A stretch of 24,037 nucleotides of DNA from a virus, in the UHGV virus genome UHGV-0103738; one strand, 5' to 3'. The notes beneath the pieces are model-generated. The model searched no databases, was not told where the DNA came from, and saw only the letters and a program-made list of their open reading frames with translations. Below, piece after piece: positions 1,033 through 20,536 of this stretch (positions are counted from its first letter, which is position 1; every line of letters begins with the position of its first letter). The position numbers and the translations under genes are program-made.

Positions 1033-1078
1033 TAACCAACGGGGGGCGCAATGCCCCCAATTAATTAAAGGTGATTAA

Positions 1079-3091
1079 ATGCTTAAATTTCGCCGCGAAC
1101 TTAACGGTTACGGTGGAGTTATTAACGAAGGGCATAACGATCAATACGAATTTGAAATTGCTTTCTCCAGTGAACAGCCTTATCAGCGCCAATTCTGGGA
1201 TGAGCAAAATCAAGAAATGGTGGTATTAGATGAAATTCTGGTACATACACCGGAAGCGGTTGATCTGTCTCGTCTGAATAATAACGCTCCGTTGCTGTTT
1301 AATCATAATTTCGATAATCATTTAGGTGTCGTTTGTAACGCTCGAATCGATGCGGATAAAGTAGGCCGTGCGACCGTTAGATTCTCTAAGCATGGCACTT
1401 TGGCTAATGATATTCGTAATAAAGTCATTGAAGGTACGATGGAAAAAATTTCTGTCGGTTATGACATTAAAGAATATCACATCGATTATGCCAAAGGACA
1501 ATTGATTGTTACTAAGTTTGTTCCTTTCGAATTAAGTTTTGTTACGGTCCCGGCGGACGATTCGGTCGGTTTAAATCGCTCTCTAAATACTATCACAGTT
1601 AATTTGGAGGCTAAACGCGATATGACTAAAGAACAAATTGAAGAAATCAAAGAAGAACAAGAATCCGCTCAGGTTGAAGAAACTCCGGTAGAAGAAAATA
1701 AAGAACCGGAAGTTGAAGAAACTCAAGAGCGCCAAGTTGAAGAGAATAAAGAAGATGAAAATCTCGAAGACGGAAAAGACGCTGAACATCCTGAAAGTGT
1801 TGATGATGATAGTTCAACTGTTCGGGAAACAGAAGAAGTAAAAGAAGAACGTGAAGCTGCTCCGGTTGAAGAAGAAAAAACCGAGGAAGTGGCTGAACGT
1901 TCCGAAGAAGACGAATTAGAAATTCGCGAAATTGCACGCGAGTTAAATATTAACGAAGACGATGAAGAATTTAAACGCGCATTGGCAAATAAAGAAATTA
2001 CGCCGGAAGCATTCCGCACTAAGGCACTAAATAACATTACCAATGCTCAACGTAATAACGAACAAATTAATAAGGAACAAATCATGGAAAAAACTTTCGA
2101 TCTTAATAACGTAATCCGCTCCCTGGTAGATGGCGACGTGCTCGGCGCTAACGAAGCTGAATATTCCGCAATGGCTGCTACTGCAACTATGCAGCGTGGT
2201 CGTGCTGCTCGTGGTGGCTCTGTATTCGTTCCGGCTGCTGCTATGCGTGCTGCTGCTGATGGCAACACCAAAGCTAATCTGGTTGCTATCACTGACGAAA
2301 AACTGATGACTGAATCCTACATCGAAATGCTGTTGCCTCAGAGTGTTTTAGGCCGCCTCGGGGTGACTGTTTATAGTGGCTTGACTTCTCCGACCGCTAT
2401 TCCAAAAATGACTAAATCCAGCGTTGACGCTTTCGGATTCGTTGACGAAAATGGCGCTGCCCCCGAGTCACATGCGGAATTTTCGAACGTGAAACTGTCT
2501 CCGAAAACTTTTGCTGGTGGCAACCCGATCAGCCGTCAGTCGCTGAAAACCGTTCCGGGCATCGCTACCCTGATCACCGATCACATTAACAAATCTGTTC
2601 GGATCAAACTGGAACAACTGATTCTGTCTGATAAAGAAAATGCTCGTGGTCCGGCTGGTCTGGTTAAGCAACTGGTAGACGCTAGCCGCGTTACCAAGAA
2701 AGCTGCTTTCTCTTATAAAGACTTCCTGAAAGAAATTGCAGCACTGACTGACGCTGGCGTTCCTGCTCAGGCGATCAAGTTTGCGATGAGCGGTGCAACT
2801 GCTGCTGAACTGGAATCTACCCTGAAAGATAACGGCGTTTCCGGTTATATCATCGAAAACGGCAAACTGGCTGGTTACGAAGTAGTTACTTCTGGCGTTA
2901 TTCCGGCAGACCACATCGTTCTGGGTGACTTCTCCGGTATTACTATCGGTGAGTGGGGCGGTCTGGAACTGGATATGGATCTAACTACATACCGTGATCG
3001 TGGTGCGGTAGTGCCTCGTATCTTTGTAGATTTGGACTACGTTGTAGCACAGCCGGAAGCTCTGAAAGTTCTTCACATCTCCGCTGAATGA
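1079..3091 (+). CDS. Prohead protease / acidic scaffold-like linker / major capsid protein encoded in one reading frame (670 aa)
   Basis: Shine-Dalgarno AAAGGTGA at 1067-1074, ATG at 1079. N-terminal ~170 aa carry HK97-family prohead protease-like motifs (ISVGY, ELSFVTVPADD). A Glu/Lys-rich low-complexity segment spans ~1620-2080. The C-terminal ~335 codons switch to codons typical of highly expressed genes (ctg, cgt, ggt, gct, ttc), as expected for a major capsid protein. Stop is TGA at 3089-3091. Confidence 0.8.
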   Translation: MLKFRRELNGYGGVINEGHNDQYEFEIAFSSEQPYQRQFWDEQNQEMVVLDEILVHTPEAVDLSRLNNNAPLLFNHNFDNHLGVVCNARIDADKVGRATVRFSKHGTLANDIRNKVIEGTMEKISVGYDIKEYHIDYAKGQLIVTKFVPFELSFVTVPADDSVGLNRSLNTITVNLEAKRDMTKEQIEEIKEEQESAQVEETPVEENKEPEVEETQERQVEENKEDENLEDGKDAEHPESVDDDSSTVRETEEVKEEREAAPVEEEKTEEVAERSEEDELEIREIARELNINEDDEEFKRALANKEITPEAFRTKALNNITNAQRNNEQINKEQIMEKTFDLNNVIRSLVDGDVLGANEAEYSAMAATATMQRGRAARGGSVFVPAAAMRAAADGNTKANLVAITDEKLMTESYIEMLLPQSVLGRLGVTVYSGLTSPTAIPKMTKSSVDAFGFVDENGAAPESHAEFSNVKLSPKTFAGGNPISRQSLKTVPGIATLITDHINKSVRIKLEQLILSDKENARGPAGLVKQLVDASRVTKKAAFSYKDFLKEIAALTDAGVPAQAIKFAMSGATAAELESTLKDNGVSGYIIENGKLAGYEVVTSGVIPADHIVLGDFSGITIGEWGGLELDMDLTTYRDRGAVVPRIFVDLDYVVAQPEALKVLHISAE

Positions 3092-3217
3092 ACTCCTGTA
3101 GAACCATCTGAACCTTCCCCCGATTTGGGGGAAGAAAATCTGATTCCTGAACCGGAAGAAGAATCCCAGACGGTTAAGGCGAAAGCCACAGCTAAAAAAC
3201 AGCGTAAAACTAAAGAA
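3092..3217 (+). other. Putative in-frame TGA read-through extension of the capsid protein (42 codons, TAA at 3218-3220)
   Basis: The frame stays open for 42 codons after the TGA, encoding TPVEPSEPSPDLGEENLIPEPEEESQTVKAKATAKKQRKTKE. It ends 5 nt before a terminator hairpin. A parallel arrangement follows the tail tube gene. Confidence 0.45.
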
Positions 3218-3225
3218 TAATAATT

Positions 3226-3252
3226 AGCCCTGCCTAACGGTGGGGCTTTTTT
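3226..3252 (+). terminator. Rho-independent terminator after the capsid gene
   Basis: Stem AGCCCTGCC / GGTGGGGCT (9 bp, two G-U pairs), loop TAAC, followed by a T-run. Near-identical to the hairpin at 9094-9121. Confidence 0.75.
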
Positions 3253-3282
3253 GTATGTAAATACTCCATAAAGGGGGTAACT

Positions 3283-3573
3283 ATGTTCAAATTATCAGAA
3301 TCACAATTAAATCGAATGTTTAAAAGTGCTCCTGTATTTTCGGTGGAAGGTGGTAAATCAATTCGTGCTTATCATGAAATTACCACTACCGACGAACAAG
3401 GGGTAATTACAGAATCAGAATTTCTATTTTGTCGTGAGGGAGACTTAAATCAGGGTGATGTTGTCATTGTAGACGGTGAACGCTTCAAAGTTCAATACGT
3501 TAAGCGCAATGGTGATAATACTTCTGATTGCTTTATTGCTCGTGCAGGGGGTACACATGCTCGCTACCGTTAA
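3283..3573 (+). CDS. Hypothetical virion protein (head-tail connector or head completion candidate, 96 aa)
   Basis: SD AAAGGGGGTAA directly upstream of ATG 3283. Sits between the capsid and tail genes. No recognisable motif. Confidence 0.5.
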   Translation: MFKLSESQLNRMFKSAPVFSVEGGKSIRAYHEITTTDEQGVITESEFLFCREGDLNQGDVVIVDGERFKVQYVKRNGDNTSDCFIARAGGTHARYR

Positions 3574-3988: not shown

Positions 3989-4822
3989 ATGAATATTACA
4001 CAAGATAACTTAGATATTTTCACGGGGTCACATGTTGAAGTGTCGATCTCTAACCAGATAGACAATCAGGTCGACTTTTTCGATCCTAGCTTTAGTTCCA
4101 TCGAGAACGTTGCAGCATTTCCTACGCTAACCGAATCCACAGAGATAGAAACTCTGGAAGAGTACGATCAGGACGCTACGGGGAAACTTGCTGGTTATCG
4201 TAGACTGGAACCGACAACACTCACGTTAAACCGTGTTCTGGATGACGAACATCAAGCAATGTTGATGAAAGCGGTAGAGGATAAAACACCTTTACGCTTC
4301 CGTATGTTCTATGTTGTGAACTCTGGCTATAGTGCTGCTAACACTGGTTACTATGTCATCTATGATGCTTACGTCACATCACACAAAACCCGTGGTAGTG
4401 ATAACAAAGCTGTAACACTGGAATTTAAACTTGAACCAGATGGCGGGATTTTGGATCGCGGTATTGCAACGGAGGGTCGTCTTCTCCGTCGCGGGGATTA
4501 TGGCGTAGGTGCAGGTGTACATCCATTCACAGGTCCGATTGATAGTGATGCTTTAGCCGGAAACCGTTTCGTAACTTACAAGGGAACTGCTAGCGGTAAT
4601 CCATATTCAGCCGACACATCATTAATTCACCTTCAAGCTAATGAGCATGGCGCATGGCAATTAACCTGTAATACTTCTGGCGCACCACGTTTACGCGTCC
4701 GAAATATTCAGGAAAACGGTCGCTCTGAATGGATCAAGGTATATTCCACCAATGAGAAACCGACACCTAGCGAAATTGGCGCAGTGGCTAAGACTGACCG
4801 GATCGATTTCGGCGAATACTAA
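3989..4822 (+). CDS. Tail-tube-like paralogue with a C-terminal domain carrying a tail-fibre motif (277 aa)
   Basis: SD AAGGGGTAA. N-terminal ~150 aa align by eye with the 157-aa tail tube protein (DIFTG..., AAFPTLTESTEIETLEEY vs AGFPETGIERGTVEVKSF, LRFRMFYVV vs IQIKVEYYV). The C-terminus has KVYSTNEKPTPSEIGAVAKTD, matching KMYHEGDKPTPGEIGAYTKAE in the fibre gene. Confidence 0.6.
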   Translation: MNITQDNLDIFTGSHVEVSISNQIDNQVDFFDPSFSSIENVAAFPTLTESTEIETLEEYDQDATGKLAGYRRLEPTTLTLNRVLDDEHQAMLMKAVEDKTPLRFRMFYVVNSGYSAANTGYYVIYDAYVTSHKTRGSDNKAVTLEFKLEPDGGILDRGIATEGRLLRRGDYGVGAGVHPFTGPIDSDALAGNRFVTYKGTASGNPYSADTSLIHLQANEHGAWQLTCNTSGAPRLRVRNIQENGRSEWIKVYSTNEKPTPSEIGAVAKTDRIDFGEY

Positions 4823-4901: not shown

Positions 4902-7900
4902 ATGCAGTCGATCCAATTTAAACGCACACAAACGGCTGGTAAAAAACCAACGCCGGAACAATTATCACAGGGCGAGATCGCCTTACAACTGGCGGACCAT
5001 GTGATTTACACCAAAGATAAAAATAATAACGTAGTCCAAATTAGTGTTTCTCCAGAAAAACACGCTGAACTGAATACGAAAGTAGACACCAACAAGGTCA
5101 ACACAGATAAAGTCATTTCAGCAAATAAAACCGAAGCCGCTAATAATCTGGCTACGGCTAAAGCTGAACTTAATCAGACTATCACTTCTACCCGTGATAC
5201 TCTCAATGCTTCAATCACTGCTGGCGATACCGCAGCCAACAAGCGAATTGATGCTTTGACTACCACAGTAGGTAACAATAAAACCGAAGCGGCTAACGCT
5301 CTGGCGGCTGCTAAGACTGAACTGAATCAGACTATTACTTCAACCCGCGATACTATCAACGCGACAATTAACAAGAACAAGACAGATATTAATGCGCGAG
5401 TTGATCAGACGAATACCAACGTTACCAACTTAACGAATACTGTCGCAGCAAATAAATCAGCAATAGAAAAGACGGTAGCGGATAATAAGAAAGATGCGGA
5501 CACGAAGATCACCAATCTTACTAGTACGGTCTCTGCGAATAAGACAGCCATTGAAAGAACTGTTGCAAATAACAAGGCCAGTGCCGATGCCGCAATTGCC
5601 GCAGCTAACCAGCGAATTGATTCTATTGAAGGTAGTGCCGATGCTGCTTACATCAAGAAGAATACCAATACTAAGCATGGTGGGTATCTGTTAAGCAAGA
5701 CAGCTAACTATTTGGAAGACCAGACAGCGAGAGATCTTAACTACTTTGGTGCTTTCCGTACCAATGGTCAAGATGGACTCATGGATCTAACTCTTAATGT
5801 TCCTCATTCTGCCGGTAAAGCGCACGGTCGCGGATTTACTTTCCGTTATGCGTCTGGTGGATCTCGTGTTGAAACCTATGGTTTTGATAGAGAAGGACAG
5901 AAGAACTTTAGCTATAAGATGTATCACGAAGGTGATAAGCCGACTCCTGGCGAGATTGGCGCATACACCAAAGCCGAAGTTGATAAGATGTTTGTTAAAA
6001 ACGTCGTTATGTCTGTTCCCAATTCTAGCGAAAACGTATCTGCATATTTCAAATTGGCAACCGCAACAATTCCACAAAACGGGCGTAGTGTGTTTTTCCG
6101 TATTCATGGTGGTAATGGTTACAACGTTACGGCATATGATCAGGTTGACGTAGTAGAAATTCTTCTGCGTAGTGGTAACGATAGACCTAAAGGTCTTAAC
6201 GTAATTGCATACCGTAGAAATACAAACAAAGATTTTGAGGTATTTGCTGTCAATACTTCCGGTGATAACTATGATATCTACGTGAAATATCAGCGTTATA
6301 CCGATAACGTTATTGTCGAATATGGGAAATCTGTTTATGTAAGTTTGACGGTTTATGATACGCCGGAAGCCACGTTAATTAAACCTTCCGTTGGTGTTAT
6401 CGGTGGTCGCAACGTAACTCTTTTTAATACTGAAAATAAACGTGGTGTGTTAAGTTTTGATGATAACACACAAAACAGCTATGACATTGTTCACTTGAGT
6501 AACGATAAAGGTACTGGACGGAAATATATTCGTAAATTCCGTAGCAACTATAACGAAATGGTTTGGCATGAAACCGTTCAGGGTGCTGTATATCGTCTTG
6601 CTACCGGTGCTACAGATTCTACAGAAGTTATTAGAATTGATTCTAATAGTGCAATACCGGGTAATTATAAAGGATATGTAATTACTGGTAAAATGGAATT
6701 GCACGGTAGTGGTAATGCGATGACTTTACATCGCCAGACTGGTCAAGCTGCATATATGGCGTGGTGGGATCGTCGTGATGGTAAAAACCAACGTAGTGGT
6801 TATATCGGTCATGCGGATGGTACTAGTGATGGTTTTGTGTGGCGTAATGATGTTGGTGCTAACTCATTTGATTTGGAAGGTAGTGGACAAGTAAATTTGA
6901 CTACAGGAAAAACAAAAATTGTATATACCAATGGTCAATATTATTCCGCTAACGCTGATGCATTCCGTATGATTTACGGTAAGTATGGTGCATTCTGGCG
7001 AAATGATGGTGGTAAAGTTTATCTGTTGTCTACTGCCGAAAATGATAGATTTGGTGGTTGGAACGGAAACCGACCATTCATTTACGATTTGACTAACGGT
7101 AAAGTTACTTTAGGTGGTGATGGTAACGAAGGCGCATTAGTTCTCGAAAGAGATAGCCGTGCTGCTCGATTTGCTGGCGATACATATATCGAGAAAGGGT
7201 TTTTAACCTTCTCTGCTGGGAGAAGCGGATCTCGTGATTATATTCGATTTAATCATTGGGGTGATAGTAATAATGCCCGTGATAACGTTTTGTACCTAGA
7301 AGATAGTCAAGGTAGACATTTTAGCACAGAGCGTGCGATGGGTACTGGTGCTCTTAAAGCAAACTTCTTAGGCGATCTTGAAGTTGGTGGTAAGTTTACT
7401 TGGGGTAAAAATACAGCTACATCCAGCTTTAATATTCGTGCTTGGGGTAACGATAGTCGTAAACAAGTATTAGAATGTGGTGATGAAAGTGGTTGGCATT
7501 GGTATACCCAACGTCCGGGCGGTCCGGGTACTACGGCAATTGAGTTTGCCATCAACGGTACTGTTAAGCCTCAAGCAATTCACACTGGCGGTAATATCAC
7601 GCTTAACGGTGCTGATATTGAATTTCGTCGCACTGGTAATAAGCATATCTGGTTTAGAGATCCAACTGGATTAGAACTAGGTTTGATGTATTCTGATGAT
7701 GCTGGTGTTATTCGCTTCCGTGGTCAGAAACAAGCCCAGACGTGGAAACTTGCGGATAAGATGATTCATCTTGAATCTGGTAGCGTCGGCGGATCTGATA
7801 AAGGTTTGATTCGTGGTAACGTTTCTGGTGGTAGCTGGTCTAGTTGGCGCGATCGTGCATCCGGCTTGCAAGTTGATTGCCCTCAATCAACCGATTCCGC

Positions 7901-8432
7901 TCATAACATCTGGAAAGCTACTCATTGGGGTAAATATCACATTGCAGCAATGGGTGTACACGTTCCTAGCGGTACTATCGGTAACGCTCTTGTTCGTCTG
8001 CATGTTAACGATACTAACTTTGACTTTAACGCTGCTGGTGACTTTACCGCAGGTCGTAACGGTAGCTTTAACGATGTTTACATTCGCTCTGACTCCCGTT
8101 TGAAGATTAACAAGGAAGAATTACAGGACGGTGCATTAGAGAAAGTAAACTCACTGAAAGTCTACACCTACGATAAAGTTAAATCTCTTTCCGATGACAC
8201 GGTGATTAAACGCGAAGTAGGTATTATTGCTCAGGATCTGGAAAAAGTATTGCCGGAAGCAGTAGGTATTCAATCCACCGAAGATCCAGAAAATCCAGAA
8301 GCAATCAAGACTATTTCTAACTCTGCTGTCAATGCTTTAATCATCAAGGCTATGCAGGAAATGGACGCCAAATATAAAGCACAGATCGAAGCATTACAGA
8401 AAGAAATTGCCGAACTGAAAGCAACTAAATAA
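4902..8432 (+). CDS. Side (L-shaped type) tail fibre with a C-terminal intramolecular chaperone / self-cleaving domain (1176 aa)
   Basis: SD GAGGTGA. N-terminal fibre-type motifs, a repeat-rich N/T/A shaft with 51-aa repeats, and a long Gly-rich beta region. The C-terminal ~114 aa begin RSDSRLKINKEE and end in a coiled coil, as in peptidase S74-type chaperone domains of phage fibres and endosialidases (Ser/Lys spacing S1063/K1068). Confidence 0.8.
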   Translation: MQSIQFKRTQTAGKKPTPEQLSQGEIALQLADHVIYTKDKNNNVVQISVSPEKHAELNTKVDTNKVNTDKVISANKTEAANNLATAKAELNQTITSTRDTLNASITAGDTAANKRIDALTTTVGNNKTEAANALAAAKTELNQTITSTRDTINATINKNKTDINARVDQTNTNVTNLTNTVAANKSAIEKTVADNKKDADTKITNLTSTVSANKTAIERTVANNKASADAAIAAANQRIDSIEGSADAAYIKKNTNTKHGGYLLSKTANYLEDQTARDLNYFGAFRTNGQDGLMDLTLNVPHSAGKAHGRGFTFRYASGGSRVETYGFDREGQKNFSYKMYHEGDKPTPGEIGAYTKAEVDKMFVKNVVMSVPNSSENVSAYFKLATATIPQNGRSVFFRIHGGNGYNVTAYDQVDVVEILLRSGNDRPKGLNVIAYRRNTNKDFEVFAVNTSGDNYDIYVKYQRYTDNVIVEYGKSVYVSLTVYDTPEATLIKPSVGVIGGRNVTLFNTENKRGVLSFDDNTQNSYDIVHLSNDKGTGRKYIRKFRSNYNEMVWHETVQGAVYRLATGATDSTEVIRIDSNSAIPGNYKGYVITGKMELHGSGNAMTLHRQTGQAAYMAWWDRRDGKNQRSGYIGHADGTSDGFVWRNDVGANSFDLEGSGQVNLTTGKTKIVYTNGQYYSANADAFRMIYGKYGAFWRNDGGKVYLLSTAENDRFGGWNGNRPFIYDLTNGKVTLGGDGNEGALVLERDSRAARFAGDTYIEKGFLTFSAGRSGSRDYIRFNHWGDSNNARDNVLYLEDSQGRHFSTERAMGTGALKANFLGDLEVGGKFTWGKNTATSSFNIRAWGNDSRKQVLECGDESGWHWYTQRPGGPGTTAIEFAINGTVKPQAIHTGGNITLNGADIEFRRTGNKHIWFRDPTGLELGLMYSDDAGVIRFRGQKQAQTWKLADKMIHLESGSVGGSDKGLIRGNVSGGSWSSWRDRASGLQVDCPQSTDSAHNIWKATHWGKYHIAAMGVHVPSGTIGNALVRLHVNDTNFDFNAAGDFTAGRNGSFNDVYIRSDSRLKINKEELQDGALEKVNSLKVYTYDKVKSLSDDTVIKREVGIIAQDLEKVLPEAVGIQSTEDPENPEAIKTISNSAVNALIIKAMQEMDAKYKAQIEALQKEIAELKATK
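5124..5429 (+). repeat. Two tandem 153-nt (51-codon) repeat units inside the fibre shaft
   Basis: AATAAAACCGAAGC(C/G)GCTAA...CTGAA(C/T)T(T/G)AATCAGACTAT(C/T)ACTTC recurs at 5124 and 5277. Protein units are NKTEAANNLATAKAELNQTITSTRDT... and NKTEAANALAAAKTELNQTITSTRDT... Confidence 0.7.
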
Positions 8433-8488
8433 TAAAAGTCGGGGGACTAGTTCCCCCGTAATAACAATTTTAATTAAGGGGTAATTCT

Positions 8489-8962
8489 ATGTCTCAGCAA
8501 TTCAAAGATATTTTTACTGGTGGTCTGGTAAGTCTGTTCTATCACGCCGATACCACTAACACCGACCTTGCCGATGAAGCATACGAAGAAATTAAAGAGT
8601 GTGCTGGTTTTCCTGAAACTGGTATCGAGCGCGGTACTGTAGAAGTTAAATCCTTCTCTTCTCAGTATAACCGTAAACTGGTAGGTAAACTGAACGTTCC
8701 TGATCTGACTCTGACCGTTAACTACATTCCTGGTGATGCGGTACATGAGAAGCTCATAAAGGCTGCCGAAGACGGTACGCGTATTCAAATCAAAGTTGAA
8801 TACTATGTTGACGCCGGAAAACAGACTGGTATTCGCACTGCTTTCAACGGCTTTATTTCTAAAGTTGCTATGAACGGTGGCGATGAAGAAGTGGTAACGA
8901 AAGAGTTTACCTTTGCTGTTGATGGTGCTCCGCTGAAACAGCAAATCTTCACTGCCGGATGA
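8489..8962 (+). CDS. Major tail tube protein (157 aa)
   Basis: SD AAGGGGTAA. Strongly biased highly-expressed codon usage. Lies upstream of the chaperone and tape-measure genes and is followed by a strong terminator. Stop is TGA at 8960-8962. Confidence 0.7.
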   Translation: MSQQFKDIFTGGLVSLFYHADTTNTDLADEAYEEIKECAGFPETGIERGTVEVKSFSSQYNRKLVGKLNVPDLTLTVNYIPGDAVHEKLIKAAEDGTRIQIKVEYYVDAGKQTGIRTAFNGFISKVAMNGGDEEVVTKEFTFAVDGAPLKQQIFTAG

Positions 8963-9085
8963 ACTAACGAAGAACTTCCTTTACCAGAACCGGAACCACT
9001 GCCGGAACATGAAGCGGTGGTGATTCCAGAAGTAGAAGAAGTTACGGCGAAAGCCACAGCAAAACGAGGCCGCAAGGCTAAGAAT
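8963..9085 (+). other. Putative in-frame TGA read-through extension of the tail tube protein (41 codons, TAA at 9086-9088)
   Basis: Open in frame after the TGA, encoding TNEELPLPEPEPLPEHEAVVIPEVEEVTAKATAKRGRKAKN. Same TGA-ACT context and same Pro/Glu-linker plus basic-tail architecture as the capsid extension. Ends 5 nt before the terminator. Confidence 0.45.
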
Positions 9086-9093
9086 TAATTTTA

Positions 9094-9121
9094 AGCCCTG
9101 CCTTAATGGTGGGGCTTTTTT
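9094..9121 (+). terminator. Rho-independent terminator after the tail tube gene
   Basis: Stem AGCCCTGCC / GGTGGGGCT, loop TTAAT, then a T-run. Same stem as the terminator at 3226-3252. Confidence 0.75.
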
Positions 9122-9136
9122 ATTGGAGTAATCAAA

Positions 9137-9643
9137 ATGGCAAATGTCGTTAAAGTTCCTGGCTGGATCGGGTCATCTGCTGTATCGGTGACGGGTAAGC
9201 GATGGATGAAAGAAGCATTAACAGCTTTAAAAGTTCCGGCTCCGCGTAATATGTCGGCAATGGCTGGTCGTGGTATGGATACGGTTGTAGCTACTGCATC
9301 GTGGTCTACTTCATTGGGTAATAACTGGGGTGTAACTGCTTCAAACTATCCTGTTTCCGGTATGCAAAGCAAAGGATCTATGGAGAACCCCGAAAACGTG
9401 GGCGTAGGGCGTCTGGTTGGCGTTATCGTTGGTCAATTCAATGGCGGTACTCCTACTATGGCTGTATATCTCCAGAACGGTAGAGCGGGGAATATAACCG
9501 TTAATTTGGGTGGTGCTGCTGTCACTGTTCCTTATAACAGTATGCAAAGTGGTTTTCATTACTATTGGTTAAGCAATCCTCCGGCTGCTTTCCTTACCAA
9601 CATTAAGAAGACTGGCACTAAGCAGACTTTGAAAATCTCTTAA
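9137..9643 (+). CDS. Hypothetical tail-associated protein (168 aa, Gly/Ser/Thr/Asn-rich)
   Basis: ORF with upstream GGAG, located between the tube gene and the chaperone genes. Composition suggests a beta-rich structural protein. No specific motif recognised. Confidence 0.45.
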   Translation: MANVVKVPGWIGSSAVSVTGKRWMKEALTALKVPAPRNMSAMAGRGMDTVVATASWSTSLGNNWGVTASNYPVSGMQSKGSMENPENVGVGRLVGVIVGQFNGGTPTMAVYLQNGRAGNITVNLGGAAVTVPYNSMQSGFHYYWLSNPPAAFLTNIKKTGTKQTLKIS

Positions 9644-14120: not shown

Positions 14121-14540
14121 ATGCTAAAAACTAGGCTTATCACCGATTACATCAATTCTTTAATAGGTCAGGAGTTCGTTCAAGGCGAGAATGATTGCAA
14201 TCTCATTGCATGTAAGATCATCGATATTCTCGCTGGTACTGACCTATATAATTCTCTTTATAAAAAATATTCAACTAAAGAAGAAGGCTTGAAAATCTGC
14301 AAAGAATTAAGCGGATATTCAAACATCCTTCAACCAATTAAGAAACATTTCAAATTAGTCACTGATGATTTACAGGACGGCGACTTACTGGTCACAGCCC
14401 ACAAATTAGGAAACCGTAATTATTATTCCGTAGTTCCTCATTATTCCGGTTATGGCCTCGTTGAAGAAGATGGTATCTGGATGACCATTCCTGTTTCAGA
14501 CATTGACTATGAACAAGTTTATAGATTCGGGGGTGAATAA
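14121..14540 (+). CDS. Tail assembly protein, gpK-like with possible NlpC/P60-type Cys motif (139 aa)
   Basis: GGAGG at 14108-14112 sits 8 nt before ATG 14121. ENDCNLIAC resembles the catalytic Cys motif of NlpC/P60 domains. Located immediately upstream of the J-like gene, with a TAATG overlap at 14538-14542. Confidence 0.5.
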   Translation: MLKTRLITDYINSLIGQEFVQGENDCNLIACKIIDILAGTDLYNSLYKKYSTKEEGLKICKELSGYSNILQPIKKHFKLVTDDLQDGDLLVTAHKLGNRNYYSVVPHYSGYGLVEEDGIWMTIPVSDIDYEQVYRFGGE

Positions 14541-17500
14541 TGGGATTTGAAATATTGGTAGGCGCGGTTATTGCTGGTGCGTCTGCTGGGATGGCTGCTG
14601 CTGCAACATTTTCTGTTATGACCGCAGTCGCTATCGGTATGGCTGCTGGTGCAATGACCTTGATCGCTTCCACTGTAGGCGCACCAAAAACACCGAAAGT
14701 ACAAAGCCCAGATAATGCGGTGACACTAGGAACATCAAACGATCCGAAGACAGTATTACCCGTTCTTTTCGGTACTACCCGCACGGGTGCAATCTGCGTT
14801 TACAAAGCAATTTCTAAGCAAGAAAACAATAAGTTAGTGCAAATCTTCGCAATTGCAGAGGGTGAAATCGACCATTACAAAGCACTATTCATCGATAACA
14901 AAAATGTTCTTGTTGGTAAGAACATGACGATCCGTGATGGTGTACTGGACAAAGGCAACATTAAAGAAGAATACCGGAAAGTTTTAGAGGTTGAGTTCCG
15001 CACTGGTAAGAATCCTAACACCGCTTTGTCACTGGCAAAACGTCACTTAGGGTCAGACTGGAACGACAACTACAAAGGCAATGGTATTGCGACCATGTGT
15101 ATTGTGTTGCGTCGTGATGACAAATCTCTTGCTGCTGGTGTTGATATTCTCCAACCAAATAGCCAGGTAGCGGTAGACGTTTGCGGGTTAAAGATTCGTA
15201 ACCTTGAAACCAATGCTATTGAGGCTAGCACTAACGGCGTGGACCAGATTTTCCATTATCTGACAAATACAAAATATGGTCTTAGTGTACCAATTGAAAA
15301 CATCAACGTTGATTCATTCCTGAAAGTACGTAAGCAAGTACGCCAGATGGATTTGCATTCAAACGGTGCATGTGATCCGAACGCCAGCTTTAAAGAGAAC
15401 TTGACTAGCCTTATGCAGACTTTCGGCGGGGTGATGTTCGAATCCTTTGGACGTATTACGCTGAAACTGGATGCTCCTGATATTGTTAAGCATACCTTCA
15501 ATGAAGACAATATCATGATGGGTAAGGTATCACTGAAAACAGGTGGCACTAACGGTTATTTCAATACCATTAACGCGATGTATCAAGAACCATCAATCGA
15601 CTATTCAGAGCAAATGCTACGTTATCCGGCTGATGCTGAAAACGATGCTACTATTCGTCAAGATGGTCGAATTATCGCTAAAGATATTGAATATCGTTTT
15701 GTTAAGTCTAAAGCCCAGATTGATAAACTTGCGAGTATTGAGCGAAATAAATCTCGTATCACTCAGGTTATCAGCTTTATGACTACTGACGCATTCACTG
15801 CCGAAGTTTGGGACGTTATCAGCGTAACCTATGATGAATTGAAGCTGAATAATTCCTTATGGCGTATTACTGCAATTGATCGCTCGATTGATTCTGGTAT
15901 TGCTGGGATGATGACTATCACCGCTACAGAATATAATTCTCAGGTTTATACTGACCTGAACTATGCGGCTAACCCAGATAACCGACCAAGTGGTTTACCG
16001 GATTCAATGACAGTACAGAAGCCTACTAATTTCAGAATTAAGGCAACTGGCGAGACGATTTACGGTAAAAACGTTACTTTGACATGGGATGCACCAGAAG
16101 ATTTTAACCGCTACGGCTTCCAGATTGATTACCGTGTAAGCGGATCACCTAACTGGATTAAGTTGGGACAGACTTCACAGCAAATTTTCAGTGTCAATGC
16201 ACTGGCAAAAGATCGTTCCTACGATTACCGAGTTTGTGCTTTCGGTATCATCGCGAGATCCGATTGGGTAGAACTGATTAACCAGAATCCTACTGTTACC
16301 TATGAATTGCCGACTCCGGTTATTCGAATCAAAAATCAGGGTAGCACGCCAGGAACTTTCGAAGGTAATGATCTGATTATCGAATGGGAAAATCAGCAAC
16401 AATTAGATGTTGAGATCAACGGTGAAACTAACAAGTTTAGTGACCTGTTTGAAGCATACATTATCAAGGTGACTAACAAGGCTGGTAAGTCTATTCAGTA
16501 CCGTACCCGCGATCCTGAATCATGGACTTATACGCTTGATATGAACCAGTTTAACGGCCTTTCGCGTCAACTTACGGTAGAAGTATCAGCTAAGGGCTAT
16601 AACAACTCAGAGAGCGCCCCAGCGCGTTTAGTGGCTATCAACCCACAACATAAGCCAATGAAAGGTTTTAGTGCGCGTGGTGGCTTTAATACTGCGTTTG
16701 TTAGCTGGGCGGATGACGTAGAACATGACTATGCAGGGTCAATCATCCAGTATGCAACCGACAACACTTTCTCAGATGCAAGGGCAGTAAGTACGAATAG
16801 TGTTAGCCATACTTCCTTTGATATTGCTGACGGTGATTATTATATCCGTGGTGCTCACTACGATATTTTCGGTATGGATGATGCTGTTTGGTCTGAACCG
16901 TATTTCATGCAAATGAAGTCTACGATTAGTTGGGACGATCAGGACAAAGAAGCACTGGAAGACCTGATCGGTTTACAAGATCGCTTAGATGAAACTATCG
17001 CGGATGCTATTAAGCAAGCTGGCGCTAATGCCGATGCTAAAATTGATGCAATGCATAAGCAAATCACTACCGAGACGGGTAAAACTGTTCAAGCCTCAGC
17101 CGATACCTTAAAGAGTCTGATTGCTTCTGGTGATAAGGCAAGTTCAACTAAGATTGATCAGGTTAAAGCTGAACTGAAAGGCGATATCACCAAAGAAGTT
17201 AGCGCCTCCGCTACAACCCTGAAACAAGCAATTGCAACCAGTGAGGCAGCAAGCGCAAGTAAGATTGATCAAGTTCGGGTAGAAATGGATGGCAAGATTG
17301 CTGGTGTGAATCAGGAAGCAGATGTAAAAATCGATGCTTTGAAAGGAACCATTAACAGCAAATACAATCTGGCGGTTAATGCAGATGGTCGCGTGGCTGG
17401 TATTCATATGAGCGCAACCAATGATCCGGCAGAACCGACAAGAATCATCTTTACGGCTGATAAAATCGCGGTAGCTCCACAGAATGGATCGGGGGTATGT

Positions 17501-18316
17501 CCGTTTGGTATCGAAGGTAACAAGGTTTATCTCGATAATGCGATGATTCGTAATGCTGCAATTGGTACAGCCCAGATTAATGATGCGGCGATTACTACTG
17601 CCAAGATCGGCAATGCCGCAATTAACAGCGCGAAGATTCAGGACGGGGCAATCACTAACGCCAAGATCGTAAACGGTGCAATTGATAACGCCAAAATTGG
17701 TAACTATATCCAGTCTTCCAACTGGAACGGATCAACCGGATGGCATATCAACAAGAACGGGTCCGCTACGTTCATGAACGCTACCGTTAAAGGTAATATC
17801 ACGGCTGATTCTGGTACTCTGAACAACGTCACGATTAACTCTAGCTGTGTTATTAAGGGTATGCTTGAAGCTACTCAGGTTAAGGGTGATTTCGTTAAGG
17901 TGATTGGTCGTAAGTTCCCACACCGTGATGTTAACGTTGATAATGGTTATGGCGGCTATCCGCAAGGTACAGTAACCGTTCGCGTTGAAGATGATCACAA
18001 GTTCGATCGTCAAATCGTTATTCCGGCGATTAGTTTTGGTGGATTGCGAGCGCGTGAAGGGTCGAACAATAATACCTATTACGACACCTGTCGCCTGATT
18101 GTTCGTAAGAATGGGTCAGAGTTGTATAATAGGGCGTATGGCGGTAATACTGGTCTTTACTCAGGTGTTATTGATATGCCAGCGGGTAAAGGTGCTGTGA
18201 CCTTGACCTTTGAAGTGCAATCAAGCGCAATCAACAACTGGACGCCTAGCACATGGATCAGTGATTTAACTGTAATGGTAACTAAAAAAGCCACTACGGG
18301 TATTACTGTTTCTTAA
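14540..18316 (+). CDS. Central tail fibre / tip attachment protein, lambda gpJ-like, with an N-terminal gpI-like hydrophobic domain (1258 aa)
   Basis: C-terminal ~150 aa resemble the remembered lambda J C-terminus (TLNNVTINSSC..., VEDDHKFDRQIVIP, VIDMPAGKGAVTLTF, DLTVMVTKK). Fibronectin III-like segment around 16000-16300. N-terminal Ala/Gly-rich hydrophobic region followed by APKTPKVQ...VLPVLFG, resembling the lambda gpI C-terminus. Confidence 0.85.
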   Translation: MGFEILVGAVIAGASAGMAAAATFSVMTAVAIGMAAGAMTLIASTVGAPKTPKVQSPDNAVTLGTSNDPKTVLPVLFGTTRTGAICVYKAISKQENNKLVQIFAIAEGEIDHYKALFIDNKNVLVGKNMTIRDGVLDKGNIKEEYRKVLEVEFRTGKNPNTALSLAKRHLGSDWNDNYKGNGIATMCIVLRRDDKSLAAGVDILQPNSQVAVDVCGLKIRNLETNAIEASTNGVDQIFHYLTNTKYGLSVPIENINVDSFLKVRKQVRQMDLHSNGACDPNASFKENLTSLMQTFGGVMFESFGRITLKLDAPDIVKHTFNEDNIMMGKVSLKTGGTNGYFNTINAMYQEPSIDYSEQMLRYPADAENDATIRQDGRIIAKDIEYRFVKSKAQIDKLASIERNKSRITQVISFMTTDAFTAEVWDVISVTYDELKLNNSLWRITAIDRSIDSGIAGMMTITATEYNSQVYTDLNYAANPDNRPSGLPDSMTVQKPTNFRIKATGETIYGKNVTLTWDAPEDFNRYGFQIDYRVSGSPNWIKLGQTSQQIFSVNALAKDRSYDYRVCAFGIIARSDWVELINQNPTVTYELPTPVIRIKNQGSTPGTFEGNDLIIEWENQQQLDVEINGETNKFSDLFEAYIIKVTNKAGKSIQYRTRDPESWTYTLDMNQFNGLSRQLTVEVSAKGYNNSESAPARLVAINPQHKPMKGFSARGGFNTAFVSWADDVEHDYAGSIIQYATDNTFSDARAVSTNSVSHTSFDIADGDYYIRGAHYDIFGMDDAVWSEPYFMQMKSTISWDDQDKEALEDLIGLQDRLDETIADAIKQAGANADAKIDAMHKQITTETGKTVQASADTLKSLIASGDKASSTKIDQVKAELKGDITKEVSASATTLKQAIATSEAASASKIDQVRVEMDGKIAGVNQEADVKIDALKGTINSKYNLAVNADGRVAGIHMSATNDPAEPTRIIFTADKIAVAPQNGSGVCPFGIEGNKVYLDNAMIRNAAIGTAQINDAAITTAKIGNAAINSAKIQDGAITNAKIVNGAIDNAKIGNYIQSSNWNGSTGWHINKNGSATFMNATVKGNITADSGTLNNVTINSSCVIKGMLEATQVKGDFVKVIGRKFPHRDVNVDNGYGGYPQGTVTVRVEDDHKFDRQIVIPAISFGGLRAREGSNNNTYYDTCRLIVRKNGSELYNRAYGGNTGLYSGVIDMPAGKGAVTLTFEVQSSAINNWTPSTWISDLTVMVTKKATTGITVS

Positions 18317-18334: not shown

Positions 18335-18375
18335 TAATCCCGCTTAATTCTTTTGAGTTAGGCGGGATTATTTTT
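18335..18375 (+). terminator. Terminator after the tail-tip gene
   Basis: Stem TAATCCCGC / GCGGGATTA (9 bp) with a long loop, followed by TTTTT. Confidence 0.6.
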
Positions 18376-20328: not shown

Positions 20329-20352
20329 AGCGCCTCTGGTGGGCGCTTTTTT
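20329..20352 (+). terminator. Rho-independent terminator ending the + strand late operon
   Basis: Stem AGCGCC / GGCGCT, loop TCTGGTG, followed by TTTTTT, starting 7 nt after the lysin stop. Confidence 0.7.
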
Positions 20353-20536
20353 GTTAGAATATGCTGGCGACGTTAGCTATATTTCTGACCATTTTTTCAT
20401 TATAGACAAATATACCGCAGACGATAAAGTCGTTTTTGACGAAGTAGATCCGTCTCTGGTTGAAGTAATGAAAGAACCGGAAGACCTAGAGCTTGATTTA
20501 AGCCAATTATAGACTCTCTAACGCAATTAAATTAAA

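Follow-up and report, generated by a model that had tools for sequence, protein, structure and literature searches.

A repeated cassette of UGA stop, in-frame extension and predicted terminator behind the capsid and tail tube genes of an Escherichia coli prophage

The window analysed here, the whole 24,037-nt stretch of the virus genome UHGV-0103738, is the late region of an uncharacterised, lambda-like siphovirus integrated as a prophage in Escherichia coli, in which head-completion genes, a gene for a 277-aa protein and a fibre gene lie between the major capsid gene and the tail tube gene (Table 1). Stop codon usage sets these two genes apart from the rest of the window, since 20 of the 24 predicted genes end in TAA and two in TAG, and the only two that end in TGA are those for capsid and tube. 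Neither of the two regions matched any of 50,697 phage records by blastn, and a tblastn search with the capsid protein returned distant relatives only (Escherichia phage DCP80 at 43% identity, phiHAP-1 and VP882 at about 30%), so that no characterised phage can be used as a reference. Relatives at 80 to 95% identity are present in 56 of 5,426 complete E. coli genomes, and more distant ones were found in Salmonella, Edwardsiella, Providencia, Hafnia and Yersinia.

Table 1. Genes and sequence features of the window, in order of position
Feature	Position	Strand	Details
Portal gene	1-1032
Prohead protease fused to HK97-fold major capsid protein	1079-3091	+
Putative leaky stop TGA-A, end of capsid gene	3089-3091	+	Kept in 19/19 distinct capsid-extension variants
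Capsid extension	3092-3223	+	42 in-frame codons (TPVEPSEPSPDLGEENLIPEPEEESQTVKAKATAKKQRKTKE); tandem stops TAA TAA at 3218-3223
Predicted structured RNA domain, capsid	3102-3175	+	Helix 3102-3109 / 3168-3175, starting 10 nt after UGA
Strong predicted hairpin inside capsid closing helix	3114-3134	+	CTTCCCCC-GATTT-GGGGGAAG
Shared 15-mer, capsid copy	3178-3192	+	GGCGAAAGCCACAGC; GNRA mini-hairpin GGC-GAAA-GCC at 3178-3187
Predicted intrinsic terminator, capsid cassette	3226-3252	+	9-bp stem with tandem U.G/G.U pairs, TAAC loop, T6
Head-completion genes	between capsid gene and 3989
277-aa protein, N-terminus resembling tube protein	3989-4822
T4 gp34/gp37-like fibre	4902-8432
Tail tube gene	8489-8962	+
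Putative leaky stop TGA-A, end of tube gene	8960-8962	+	Kept in 11/11 distinct tube-extension variants
Tube extension	8963-9094	+	41 in-frame codons (TNEELPLPEPEPLPEHEAVVIPEVEEVTAKATAKRGRKAKN), closed by TAA 9086-9088 and, in the same frame, TAA 9092-9094
Predicted structured RNA domain, tube	8973-9043	+	Helix 8973-8980 (AACTTCCT) / 9036-9043 (AAGAAGTT), starting 10 nt after UGA
Shared 15-mer, tube copy	9046-9060	+	GGCGAAAGCCACAGC; GNRA mini-hairpin at 9046-9055
Predicted intrinsic terminator, tube cassette	9093-9121	+	9-bp stem as in capsid copy, with an additional A-U pair; TTAAT loop, T6
gp38-like adhesin	9137-9643
Tail chaperone pair, tape measure protein, distal tail and hub proteins	3' of gp38-like adhesin, before 14540
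gpJ-like tip protein	14540-18316
M15 endolysin, then serine recombinase	after gpJ-like tip gene	serine recombinase on opposite strand

Each of the two TGA codons is followed by an A and by an in-frame extension that closes with backed-up stops, reading TAA-TTT-TAA in the tube copy. We compared 30 distinct variants of this extension (19 capsid, 11 tube) from complete genomes, metagenomes and IMG/VR contigs, covering E. coli and Providencia, and observe that all of them start with TGA-A and have a stop-free frame 0, with two to seven stops in the other two frames. All 30 lengths (81 to 138 nt) are divisible by three, despite indels of 3, 6, 15 and 42 nt. The encoded peptide has 26 to 45 residues, is of low complexity and rich in E, P, K and R, and keeps its design despite sequence drift: an acidic proline-rich linker is followed by AKATAKK/R and then by a K/R-rich end, such as KQRKTKE, KVGRPPKAK, RGRKAKN or, in Providencia, KRRKSK. 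Relatives that lack the extension carry TAA instead of TGA, with a terminator 7 to 18 nt after it; these are the capsid genes of Salmonella and Hafnia, as well as the tube genes of other E. coli lineages, Salmonella, Providencia and Hafnia.

Two Edwardsiella sequences depart from this scheme in different ways. The tube gene ends in TAA, and its protein has VIPEAVAAKEK, a short related tail, joined to it in frame and with no stop between them. The capsid gene has an extension-like open reading frame, VIPTGREEVSVKSGRKPKTDN, that lies in the -1 frame with respect to its stop; GTA AAG, eight nucleotides before this stop, offers a possible A-AAG slip site. These two sequences hint that the peptide itself may matter. 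The idea of a separate small gene within the extension was also rejected, as there is no ATG in the capsid extension and the tube extension has a single one, which opens an out-of-frame reading frame of 4 codons.

A sense-codon version of the TGA did not turn up in a database of 5.8 billion proteins queried with tube-plus-extension and capsid-plus-extension sequences, and the capsid-plus-extension query retrieved no protein covering the extension. A 198-aa "fused" tube protein (P0001) was discarded as a gene-caller artefact, as its contig has TGA at the junction and had been translated with a code that reads TGA as Trp. The retention of the stop suggests that extension is intended for a minority of the subunits only. 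In E. coli, tRNA-Trp misreads UGA most readily when an A comes next, and UAA is the stop favoured by highly expressed genes (PMC5289835). With a UGA in a leaky context, an open frame in phase with the upstream gene and a stop retained across relatives, the extension looks, on comparative sequence grounds, like the product of programmed UGA readthrough that has been conserved.

The RNA of the extension is predicted to be structured. A stable helix shortly after the stop is the placement of readthrough stimulators in eukaryotic viruses. Against dinucleotide shuffles, four of five variants fold with z scores of -3.7 to -5.5, and the fifth, the tube variant of L003, folds no better than its shuffles (z = -1.1). 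In all 30 variants, nucleotides 14 to 21 (counting the U of UGA as 1) pair with the eight nucleotides immediately upstream of a motif, A(C/A/U)GG(C/A)GAAA(G/U)CC, which forms the GNRA mini-hairpin 3' of this closing helix, and the sequence enclosed by the helix is variable (26 to 74 nt). The pairing of the closing helix holds at 90% in register, compared with 19 to 58% when either arm is slid by 1 to 3 nt (30 variants), and individual pairs co-vary across the same set: pair 4 is U-A in 12, C-G in 15 and A-U in one, and pair 6 is C-G in 15, U-A in 14 and U.G in one. The mini-hairpin also varies in a compensatory manner, with GGA-GAAA-UCC in Providencia and in the L003 tube copy keeping the pairing and changing the encoded AKA to EKS. 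Against the readthrough reading stands that a purely RNA-level role would explain both the strong structure and this nonsynonymous compensatory change from GGC-GAAA-GCC to GGA-GAAA-UCC.

With respect to codon positions, third positions vary in 9 of 42 codons of the capsid extension versus 152 of 270 in the capsid body, and in 11 of 41 codons of the tube extension versus 77 of 157 in the tube body, a smaller drop than that seen for the capsid. Substitutions at first, second and third positions number 4:8:9 in the capsid extension versus 52:48:152 in the gene body, and 10:6:11 versus 21:18:77 for the tube. The missing third-position excess implies that selection on the amino-acid sequence is weak or that it is masked by RNA constraints, and low third-position variation without such an excess is the pattern that overlapping RNA constraints produce. 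The same pattern is the chief point in favour of seeing the region as RNA only.

The strongest alternative to translation is that the region from TGA to terminator is an untranslated, structured 3' UTR, serving as an mRNA stabiliser, as a shield against Rho or as the source of a 3'-UTR-derived small RNA whose end is the terminator, with the open reading frame being incidental. The strong conserved folds with their co-varying helix, the suppressed third-position variation with no synonymous excess and the two amino acids altered by the compensatory change in the mini-hairpin would all be expected from such an RNA, and the sub-threshold Rfam matches, weak as they are, all point to families of leaders and small RNAs with a terminator at the end; yet no Rfam 15 family reaches its gathering score in the window. 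Nothing would furthermore oblige an untranslated RNA to share the phase of the upstream gene, to keep exactly one stop-free frame in 30 of 30 variants or to accept indels of 3 to 42 nt in multiples of three only. It also leaves unexplained why TGA-A occurs at just these two genes and TAA in all extension-less relatives, and why the acidic character of the linker and the basic character of the tail are kept across divergent sequences. We therefore judge an untranslated 3' UTR to be improbable.

Much less credit still can be given to the idea that the extension is reached by frameshifting, selenocysteine insertion, a suppressor tRNA or a reassigned code rather than by near-cognate readthrough of UGA. 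The Edwardsiella capsid gene, with its -1-frame reading frame VIPTGREEVSVKSGRKPKTDN and its possible A-AAG slip site, speaks for frameshifting, which is however unneeded in E. coli and Providencia, where the extension is in frame. ARAGORN detected no tRNA, and hence no suppressor tRNA, in the window, Rfam reported no SECIS-like element there, and TAA or TAG closes each of the 22 remaining genes, in line with the standard code.

The two extensions are related to each other beyond their common design. A direct-repeat search reported an ungapped 80-nt repeat (3173-3252 versus 9041-9120, 71% identity), and a gapped alignment of 3170-3255 with 9040-9125, the comparison that the sequence-only reading had proposed as a check, gives 64 identities in 84 positions (76%; z = 24.5 versus 2000 shuffles). 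The 15-mer GGCGAAAGCCACAGC that this reading had named as shared upstream sequence is indeed present at 3178-3192 and 9046-9060. It had further described a duplicated cassette of about 75 nt made up of basic-tail codons and terminator; the duplication stands and the size does not, as the homology spans about 160 nt, starting at the TGA that closes the gene and reaching the T-run. The main content of the cassette is the UGA-readthrough extension, which the earlier reading had mentioned only through its "extension stop".

This extent is plain in the relative L004, whose short capsid cassette aligns with the tube cassette of the same genome at 101 identical positions of 114, with all gaps in frame (z = 21), and the match between the Providencia capsid cassette and the tube cassettes of E. 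coli is just as good. Within the window, the 5' halves of the two copies have diverged (z = 3.4), and the coding part of the two cassettes alone still gives z = 9.2. The flanks are unrelated on both sides, both for the last 19 codons before the TGA (z = 1.3) and for the sequence after the T-run (z = 0.2). The earlier view of the terminators behind capsid and tube as the ends of one duplicated cassette is thus borne out, with alignment scores of z = 21 to 24.5, and we conclude from the alignments that the two sites are paralogous copies of a single cassette.

The cassette is present in 51 of the 5,426 complete E. coli genomes, in at most two places per genome, and no third copy and no plasmid copy was found in these genomes; the search for further copies that had been suggested earlier thus yielded none beyond the two, in the window or in the E. 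coli genomes. Two strains that carry both cassettes, E. coli PI7 (NZ_CP074033) and 39EVA (NZ_CP138416), share the tube cassette of the window without any difference. The capsid cassette occurs in all E. coli relatives examined and in the Providencia relative. The tube cassette is confined to the subclade that has a gp38-like gene after the tube gene (the window, L001-L010 and several IMG/VR contigs), and the tube terminator of this subclade matches the capsid terminator, being identical, loop included, to the capsid terminator of L014, and is unlike the terminator of the extension-less tube genes. This distribution, together with the likeness to the capsid copy, argues for recombinational transfer, an origin that had been offered earlier and that fits these data. 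As judged from the distribution, the extension would have arisen on the capsid gene first, and extension and terminator would later have been copied together to the tube gene by recombination, replacing an older tube terminator.

The 3' end of each copy is a hairpin followed by a T-run. Exactly two stretches of the window, both on the + strand (3226-3247 and 9094-9116), match the pattern AGCCCTGCC-N3-8-GGTGGGGCT, and none does in 100 dinucleotide shuffles. The capsid and tube stems are 9 and 10 bp long with six G-C pairs, the loops measure 4 and 5 nt, and T6 abuts the stem directly in both hairpins (3226-3252 and 9094-9121). The look-alike hairpins had been placed at these positions by the sequence-only reading, each 5 nt after the extension stop, and we find both positions and distances to be correct, with the stops TAA 3218-3220 and TAA 9086-9088 each lying 5 nt before the A that opens the stem. 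RNA folding gives -16.4 kcal/mol for the capsid hairpin and -17.0 kcal/mol for the tube hairpin (z = -3.2 and -3.7), and the opposite strand, where A.C mismatches take the place of the two G.U pairs and open an internal loop, reaches -11.6 kcal/mol at best. This asymmetry points to terminators that work in one direction. With a GC-rich stem and a loop inside the usual size ranges (about 5 to 14 bp and 3 to 8 nt), a U-tract at the stem and a position on the sense strand 3' of the stop that is conserved among relatives, both hairpins are, by their sequence anatomy, taken to be genuine one-directional Rho-independent terminators.

In themselves these terminators are ordinary, and phage late operons often carry a hairpin after the capsid and tail genes. 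In E. coli, Salmonella, Edwardsiella, Providencia and Hafnia, capsid gene and tube gene alike are followed by a hairpin with U5-6; the stems of 14 such hairpins differ and co-vary, with folding energies between -14 and -20.5 kcal/mol throughout. In the L008 capsid terminator, through the variant GGCGGGGCT, a G.U pair becomes G-C. Extension-less tube genes have a different terminator, AGCCATCC-TTCG-GGGTGGCT, for which a compensatory stem change is seen as well, AGCCATCC/GGGTGGCT corresponding to AGCCGTCC/GGGCGGCT. A single Yersinia pekkanenii locus, recovered in the contig scan, has a tube gene with neither terminator nor extension after it. Since terminators are present in five genera, also where the extension is absent (Salmonella, Hafnia and the extension-less E. 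coli tube genes), their position is ancestral and independent of the extension, and it was not introduced by the cassette.

The stem sequence itself is widespread. At least 119 IMG/VR contigs contain the exact 9+9-nt stem followed by T5. The sequences upstream of it represent at least 65 unrelated contexts, 55 different loops occur, and several unrelated major head genes have the stem 3' of them. Control stems gave 20 IMG/VR matches when the tandem G.U step was shifted by one position, 29 for the perfect Watson-Crick stem AGCCCCACC and 110 for the all-GC stem AGCCCCGCC/GGCGGGGCT, so that the exact stem is at least as common as the last of these. The stem is thus a recurrent design, and its identity alone is no proof of duplication; after these scans we rejected it as such, and the earlier use of the near-identical stem as a sign of common descent is weak, given the unrelated contexts that carry the same stem.

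These counts, and the recurrence of the stem behind unrelated head genes, are what favours the explanation that the two hairpins became alike by convergence on a common terminator design, with no duplication or transfer. The homology, however, reaches about 130 nt upstream of the hairpin and covers the whole extension (101/114 in L004, z = 21; z = 9.2 for the coding part), a long open reading frame with TGA and in-frame extension accompanies the stem only in this phage family among the 120 IMG/VR matches listed, and the extension-less tube genes have a different terminator. For the cassette as a whole convergence is refuted, composition-preserving shuffles speak against a compositional artefact, and we give the explanation hardly any weight.

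Downstream of the T-runs, the next start codons lie at 3283 and 9137, leaving gaps of 30 nt (3253-3282) and 15 nt (9122-9136). Both gaps hold ribosome-binding sites and neither contains a promoter-like site, and the same tight spacing between T-run and start codon is found in all relatives examined. As essential genes follow closely with no room for a promoter, the terminators are not absolute stops and should be bypassed often. That they act as full stops, dividing the late region into units with a promoter each, would suit hairpins that are strong by sequence (9 to 10 bp, six U, -16 to -17 kcal/mol) but finds no promoter-like site in either gap, in a spacing common to all relatives, and is very unlikely. 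Beside the terminase end of the prophage in strain H2, on the one flank inspected, only a Rha-family regulator and hypothetical genes are annotated, and no antiterminator; if a Q-type antiterminator is used in late transcription, the hairpins may not terminate during lytic growth.

Taken together, we consider it probable that capsid and tube genes share a two-copy cassette of UGA-A stop, structured RNA, tail codons and partial terminator, which was copied by recombination and through which a few capsid and tube subunits are extended. From 5' to 3', such a cassette would consist of a leaky UGA-A, a 10-nt spacer, a helix-closed RNA domain, a GNRA mini-hairpin and K/R tail codons, followed by strong backed-up UAA stops, five nucleotides and the terminator. 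Most ribosomes would stop at UGA and release the normal protein, and in a small fraction tRNA-Trp would read the UGA, adding 41 to 45 residues that form a proline-rich, acidic stalk ending in a cationic tip. Virions would in that case contain a few extended capsid and tube subunits, with the tails, by analogy only, probably on the outer surface. At the RNA level, the hairpins may act as partial terminators that attenuate transcription or as 3' stabilisers of processed mRNA, and either activity could raise the capsid and tube message relative to the downstream genes. That the hairpins set transcript stoichiometry, and that capsid and tube are the most highly expressed genes, as the sequence-only reading had it, may hold, going by virion copy numbers and by the conserved positions.

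A bolder version of this mechanism would see the cassette as a portable recoding unit of a kind undescribed in bacteria, one that has already moved between two structural genes and in which helix and mini-hairpin stimulate readthrough. A readthrough ribosome at a stop 5 nt from the stem would cover the 5' arm of the hairpin and could in this way couple rare readthrough to transcription into the downstream genes. The AT-hook-like cationic tip (KKVGRPPKAK / KRGRKAK) on its acidic stalk could attach to LPS, capsule, extracellular DNA or similar polyanionic surfaces, an adhesive role suggested by analogy. We offer this version tentatively and regard it as rather unlikely.

The closest known case in mechanism is the A1 protein of coliphage Qbeta, and the closest in biology are the extensions of phages PSA, A118, A500 and A2 and the 10A/10B pair of T7. 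In Qbeta, the UGA that ends the coat gene is occasionally read by tRNA-Trp, giving a minor, C-terminally extended virion protein. Qbeta is a single-stranded RNA phage with a single readthrough gene, whereas here a double-stranded DNA prophage has two structural genes of this type. The extension of A1 is long and folded, in contrast to the short low-complexity tail encoded here by a cassette that a transcription terminator closes.

In the Listeria phages PSA, A118 and A500 and in Lactobacillus phage A2, recoding at the 3' end extends both capsid and tail proteins (PMC5009743), and the likeness lies in the major capsid and major tail genes both giving a second, longer product. These phages differ in using +1/-1 frameshifting at slippery sites, and many of their extensions are Ig-like domains (PMC5009743), whereas the extensions described here lie in frame behind UGA and form paralogous copies, as judged above, of one DNA cassette. 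In both E. coli and Providencia the extension continues frame 0, the one case in the -1 frame being the single Edwardsiella sequence, and, by length and composition, the extension is too short and too low in complexity for an Ig fold.

The T7 terminator T-phi is a strong hairpin just 3' of the capsid gene and boosts the capsid message. T7 differs in using a -1 frameshift, in a terminator that serves the phage RNA polymerase and in having one such site, whereas here the polymerase is presumably that of the host, the stop is a putatively leaky UGA and the arrangement is repeated after the tube gene. Gene 10A/10B of T7 and T3 yields a minor, C-terminally extended capsid form by recoding (PMC5009743), and termination at T7 gene 10 is mentioned in PMC2952870.

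The Ig-like domain of lambda gpV and SPP1 gp17.1* are C-terminal appendages of tube subunits that are dispensable for the tube fold, and in SPP1 only some subunits are extended, the gp17.1* form being made by recoding. The general point of recoded tail-protein appendages is covered by PMC5009743. The appendages of gpV and gp17.1* are folded Ig or FN3 domains, whereas the tail described here would be charged and probably disordered, and would be added by readthrough.

A last likeness concerns the PeSL repeats of T4-type phages, in which a promoter and a stem-loop mediate the shuffling of modules and the promoter is an early one. Short intergenic stem-loops recur in both systems and could serve as recombination joints, and it is a PeSL-like trait of the present repeat that it ends exactly at the T-run and that the same stem recurs in many phages. 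Unlike PeSL, the repeat contains no promoter, and the cassette also carries coding sequence.

In the literature on stop-codon readthrough in the capsid or tail-tube genes of double-stranded DNA phages, we found no description of this arrangement. The interest of the locus thus lies in what the terminators close, namely, a candidate UGA readthrough on both capsid and tail tube through two copies of one cassette. Precedents for the extension of both capsid and tail use frameshifting, and the precedent for readthrough in an E. coli phage is the RNA phage Qbeta; the duplicated cassette of putative readthrough stop, structured RNA and terminator would extend the known recoding strategies. Work on this cassette could reveal whether bacterial ribosomes respond to RNA structure downstream of a stop codon, as well as the function of a charged tail carried by a few subunits of the virion. 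The system is easily tested, with the prophage residing in sequenced E. coli strains and both the UGA and the helix being open to mutation, and if Trp is inserted at UGA, the junction peptides can be predicted as ...HISAE-W-TPVEPSEPSPDLGEENLIPEPEEESQTVK for the capsid and ...IFTAG-W-TNEELPLPEPEPLPEHEAVVIPEVEEVTAK for the tube. The locus also bears on annotation, as gene callers miss the extensions or, in one metagenome, read through the stop by applying the wrong genetic code.

In the loci compared, the presence of an extension cassette on the tube gene goes together with the order of its neighbors. In the window, the tube gene sits between the fibre gene (4902-8432) and the gp38-like adhesin gene (9137-9643), while the Edwardsiella order is fibre, gp38 and then tube. 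Comparing window 8489-9643 with the relative loci L012-L015, L018, L022 and L023, we observed that, within this sample, all sequences with a gp38-like gene after the tube gene, and no others, carry the tube extension cassette.

The 3' ends of these genes vary among the relatives. The tube protein of the Edwardsiella locus L018 (P0023, 9001-9528) has 175 aa and a C-terminus ending ...NVIPEAVAAKEK with no stop in between, and this tail looks like a short version of the extension that is constitutively fused. At the same locus, the capsid gene (3' end in region 2640-2900) finishes with ...GTA AAG CAA GGG TGA, and the -1 frame holds an extension-like open reading frame, ARVIPTGREEVSVKSGRKPKTDN, that stops 8 nt 5' of the terminator; seen in a single sequence, this frame could be reached by a -1 slip at A-AAG, or else it could reflect an assembly error. 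In the Hafnia pair (L020 and L021), one capsid gene ends in ...PAGV-TAA followed in frame by AKSKD-TAA and the other in ...PAGAEAKSKD-TAA, and therefore the stop in the former falls five codons early; this early stop is TAA and not a leaky TGA. Furthermore, in an ENA metagenome contig (L010, 41-640) the public gene call crosses the TGA without stopping and yields a 198-aa tube protein (P0001) with W in place of the stop, the gene caller evidently having applied a code in which TGA is Trp. Records such as this could pass for true fusions.

Outside these relatives, an IMG/VR scan found the exact terminator stem AGCCCTGCC/GGTGGGGCT followed by T5 in at least 119 viral contigs (L024-L142), with at least 65 unrelated contexts and 55 different loops among the matches listed. 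Fewer matches (L143-L272) were obtained for each of the control stems, namely, 20 for a shifted-wobble stem, 29 for a perfect Watson-Crick stem and 110 for an all-GC stem. The stem AGCCCTGCC/GGTGGGGCT itself, common as it is, carries two wobble pairs.

G+C-rich hairpins without a U-tract also precede both genes (see the table), and those at both 5' positions are retained in most relatives, with compensatory changes; no hairpin was found 5' of the capsid gene at the Hafnia locus L020. Given these 5' hairpins and the 3' terminators, the capsid gene and the tube gene are therefore each bracketed by a hairpin and a terminator. Two more terminator-like sites punctuate the late region.

Hairpins and terminator-like sites in the window
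Feature	Sequence	Position	Strand	Location
G+C-rich hairpin, no U-tract	GGGGGCGCAATGCCCCC	1042-1058		just upstream of capsid gene ribosome-binding site
G+C-rich hairpin, no U-tract	CGGGGGACTAGTTCCCCCG	8440-8458		just upstream of tube gene ribosome-binding site
16-bp hairpin + T-run		18335-18370	+	directly 3' of gpJ-like tip gene
Terminator-like site	GGCGCTTTTTTGT	about 20342-20365	+	3' of endolysin gene

Among the other proteins of the window, a conserved 277-aa protein (3989-4822), encoded directly 5' of the side-fibre gene, is a second tube-like paralogue: its N-terminal half matches the major-tail-protein family phrog_158, as does the true tube protein. The protease-capsid fusion contains a highly acidic region between its protease and capsid domains (1630-1890), made up of imperfect repeats on a 33-aa scale with a high content of E, V, K and P. 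The DNA direct repeats D1, D5, D6 and D9 are these same acidic repeats at the nucleotide level.
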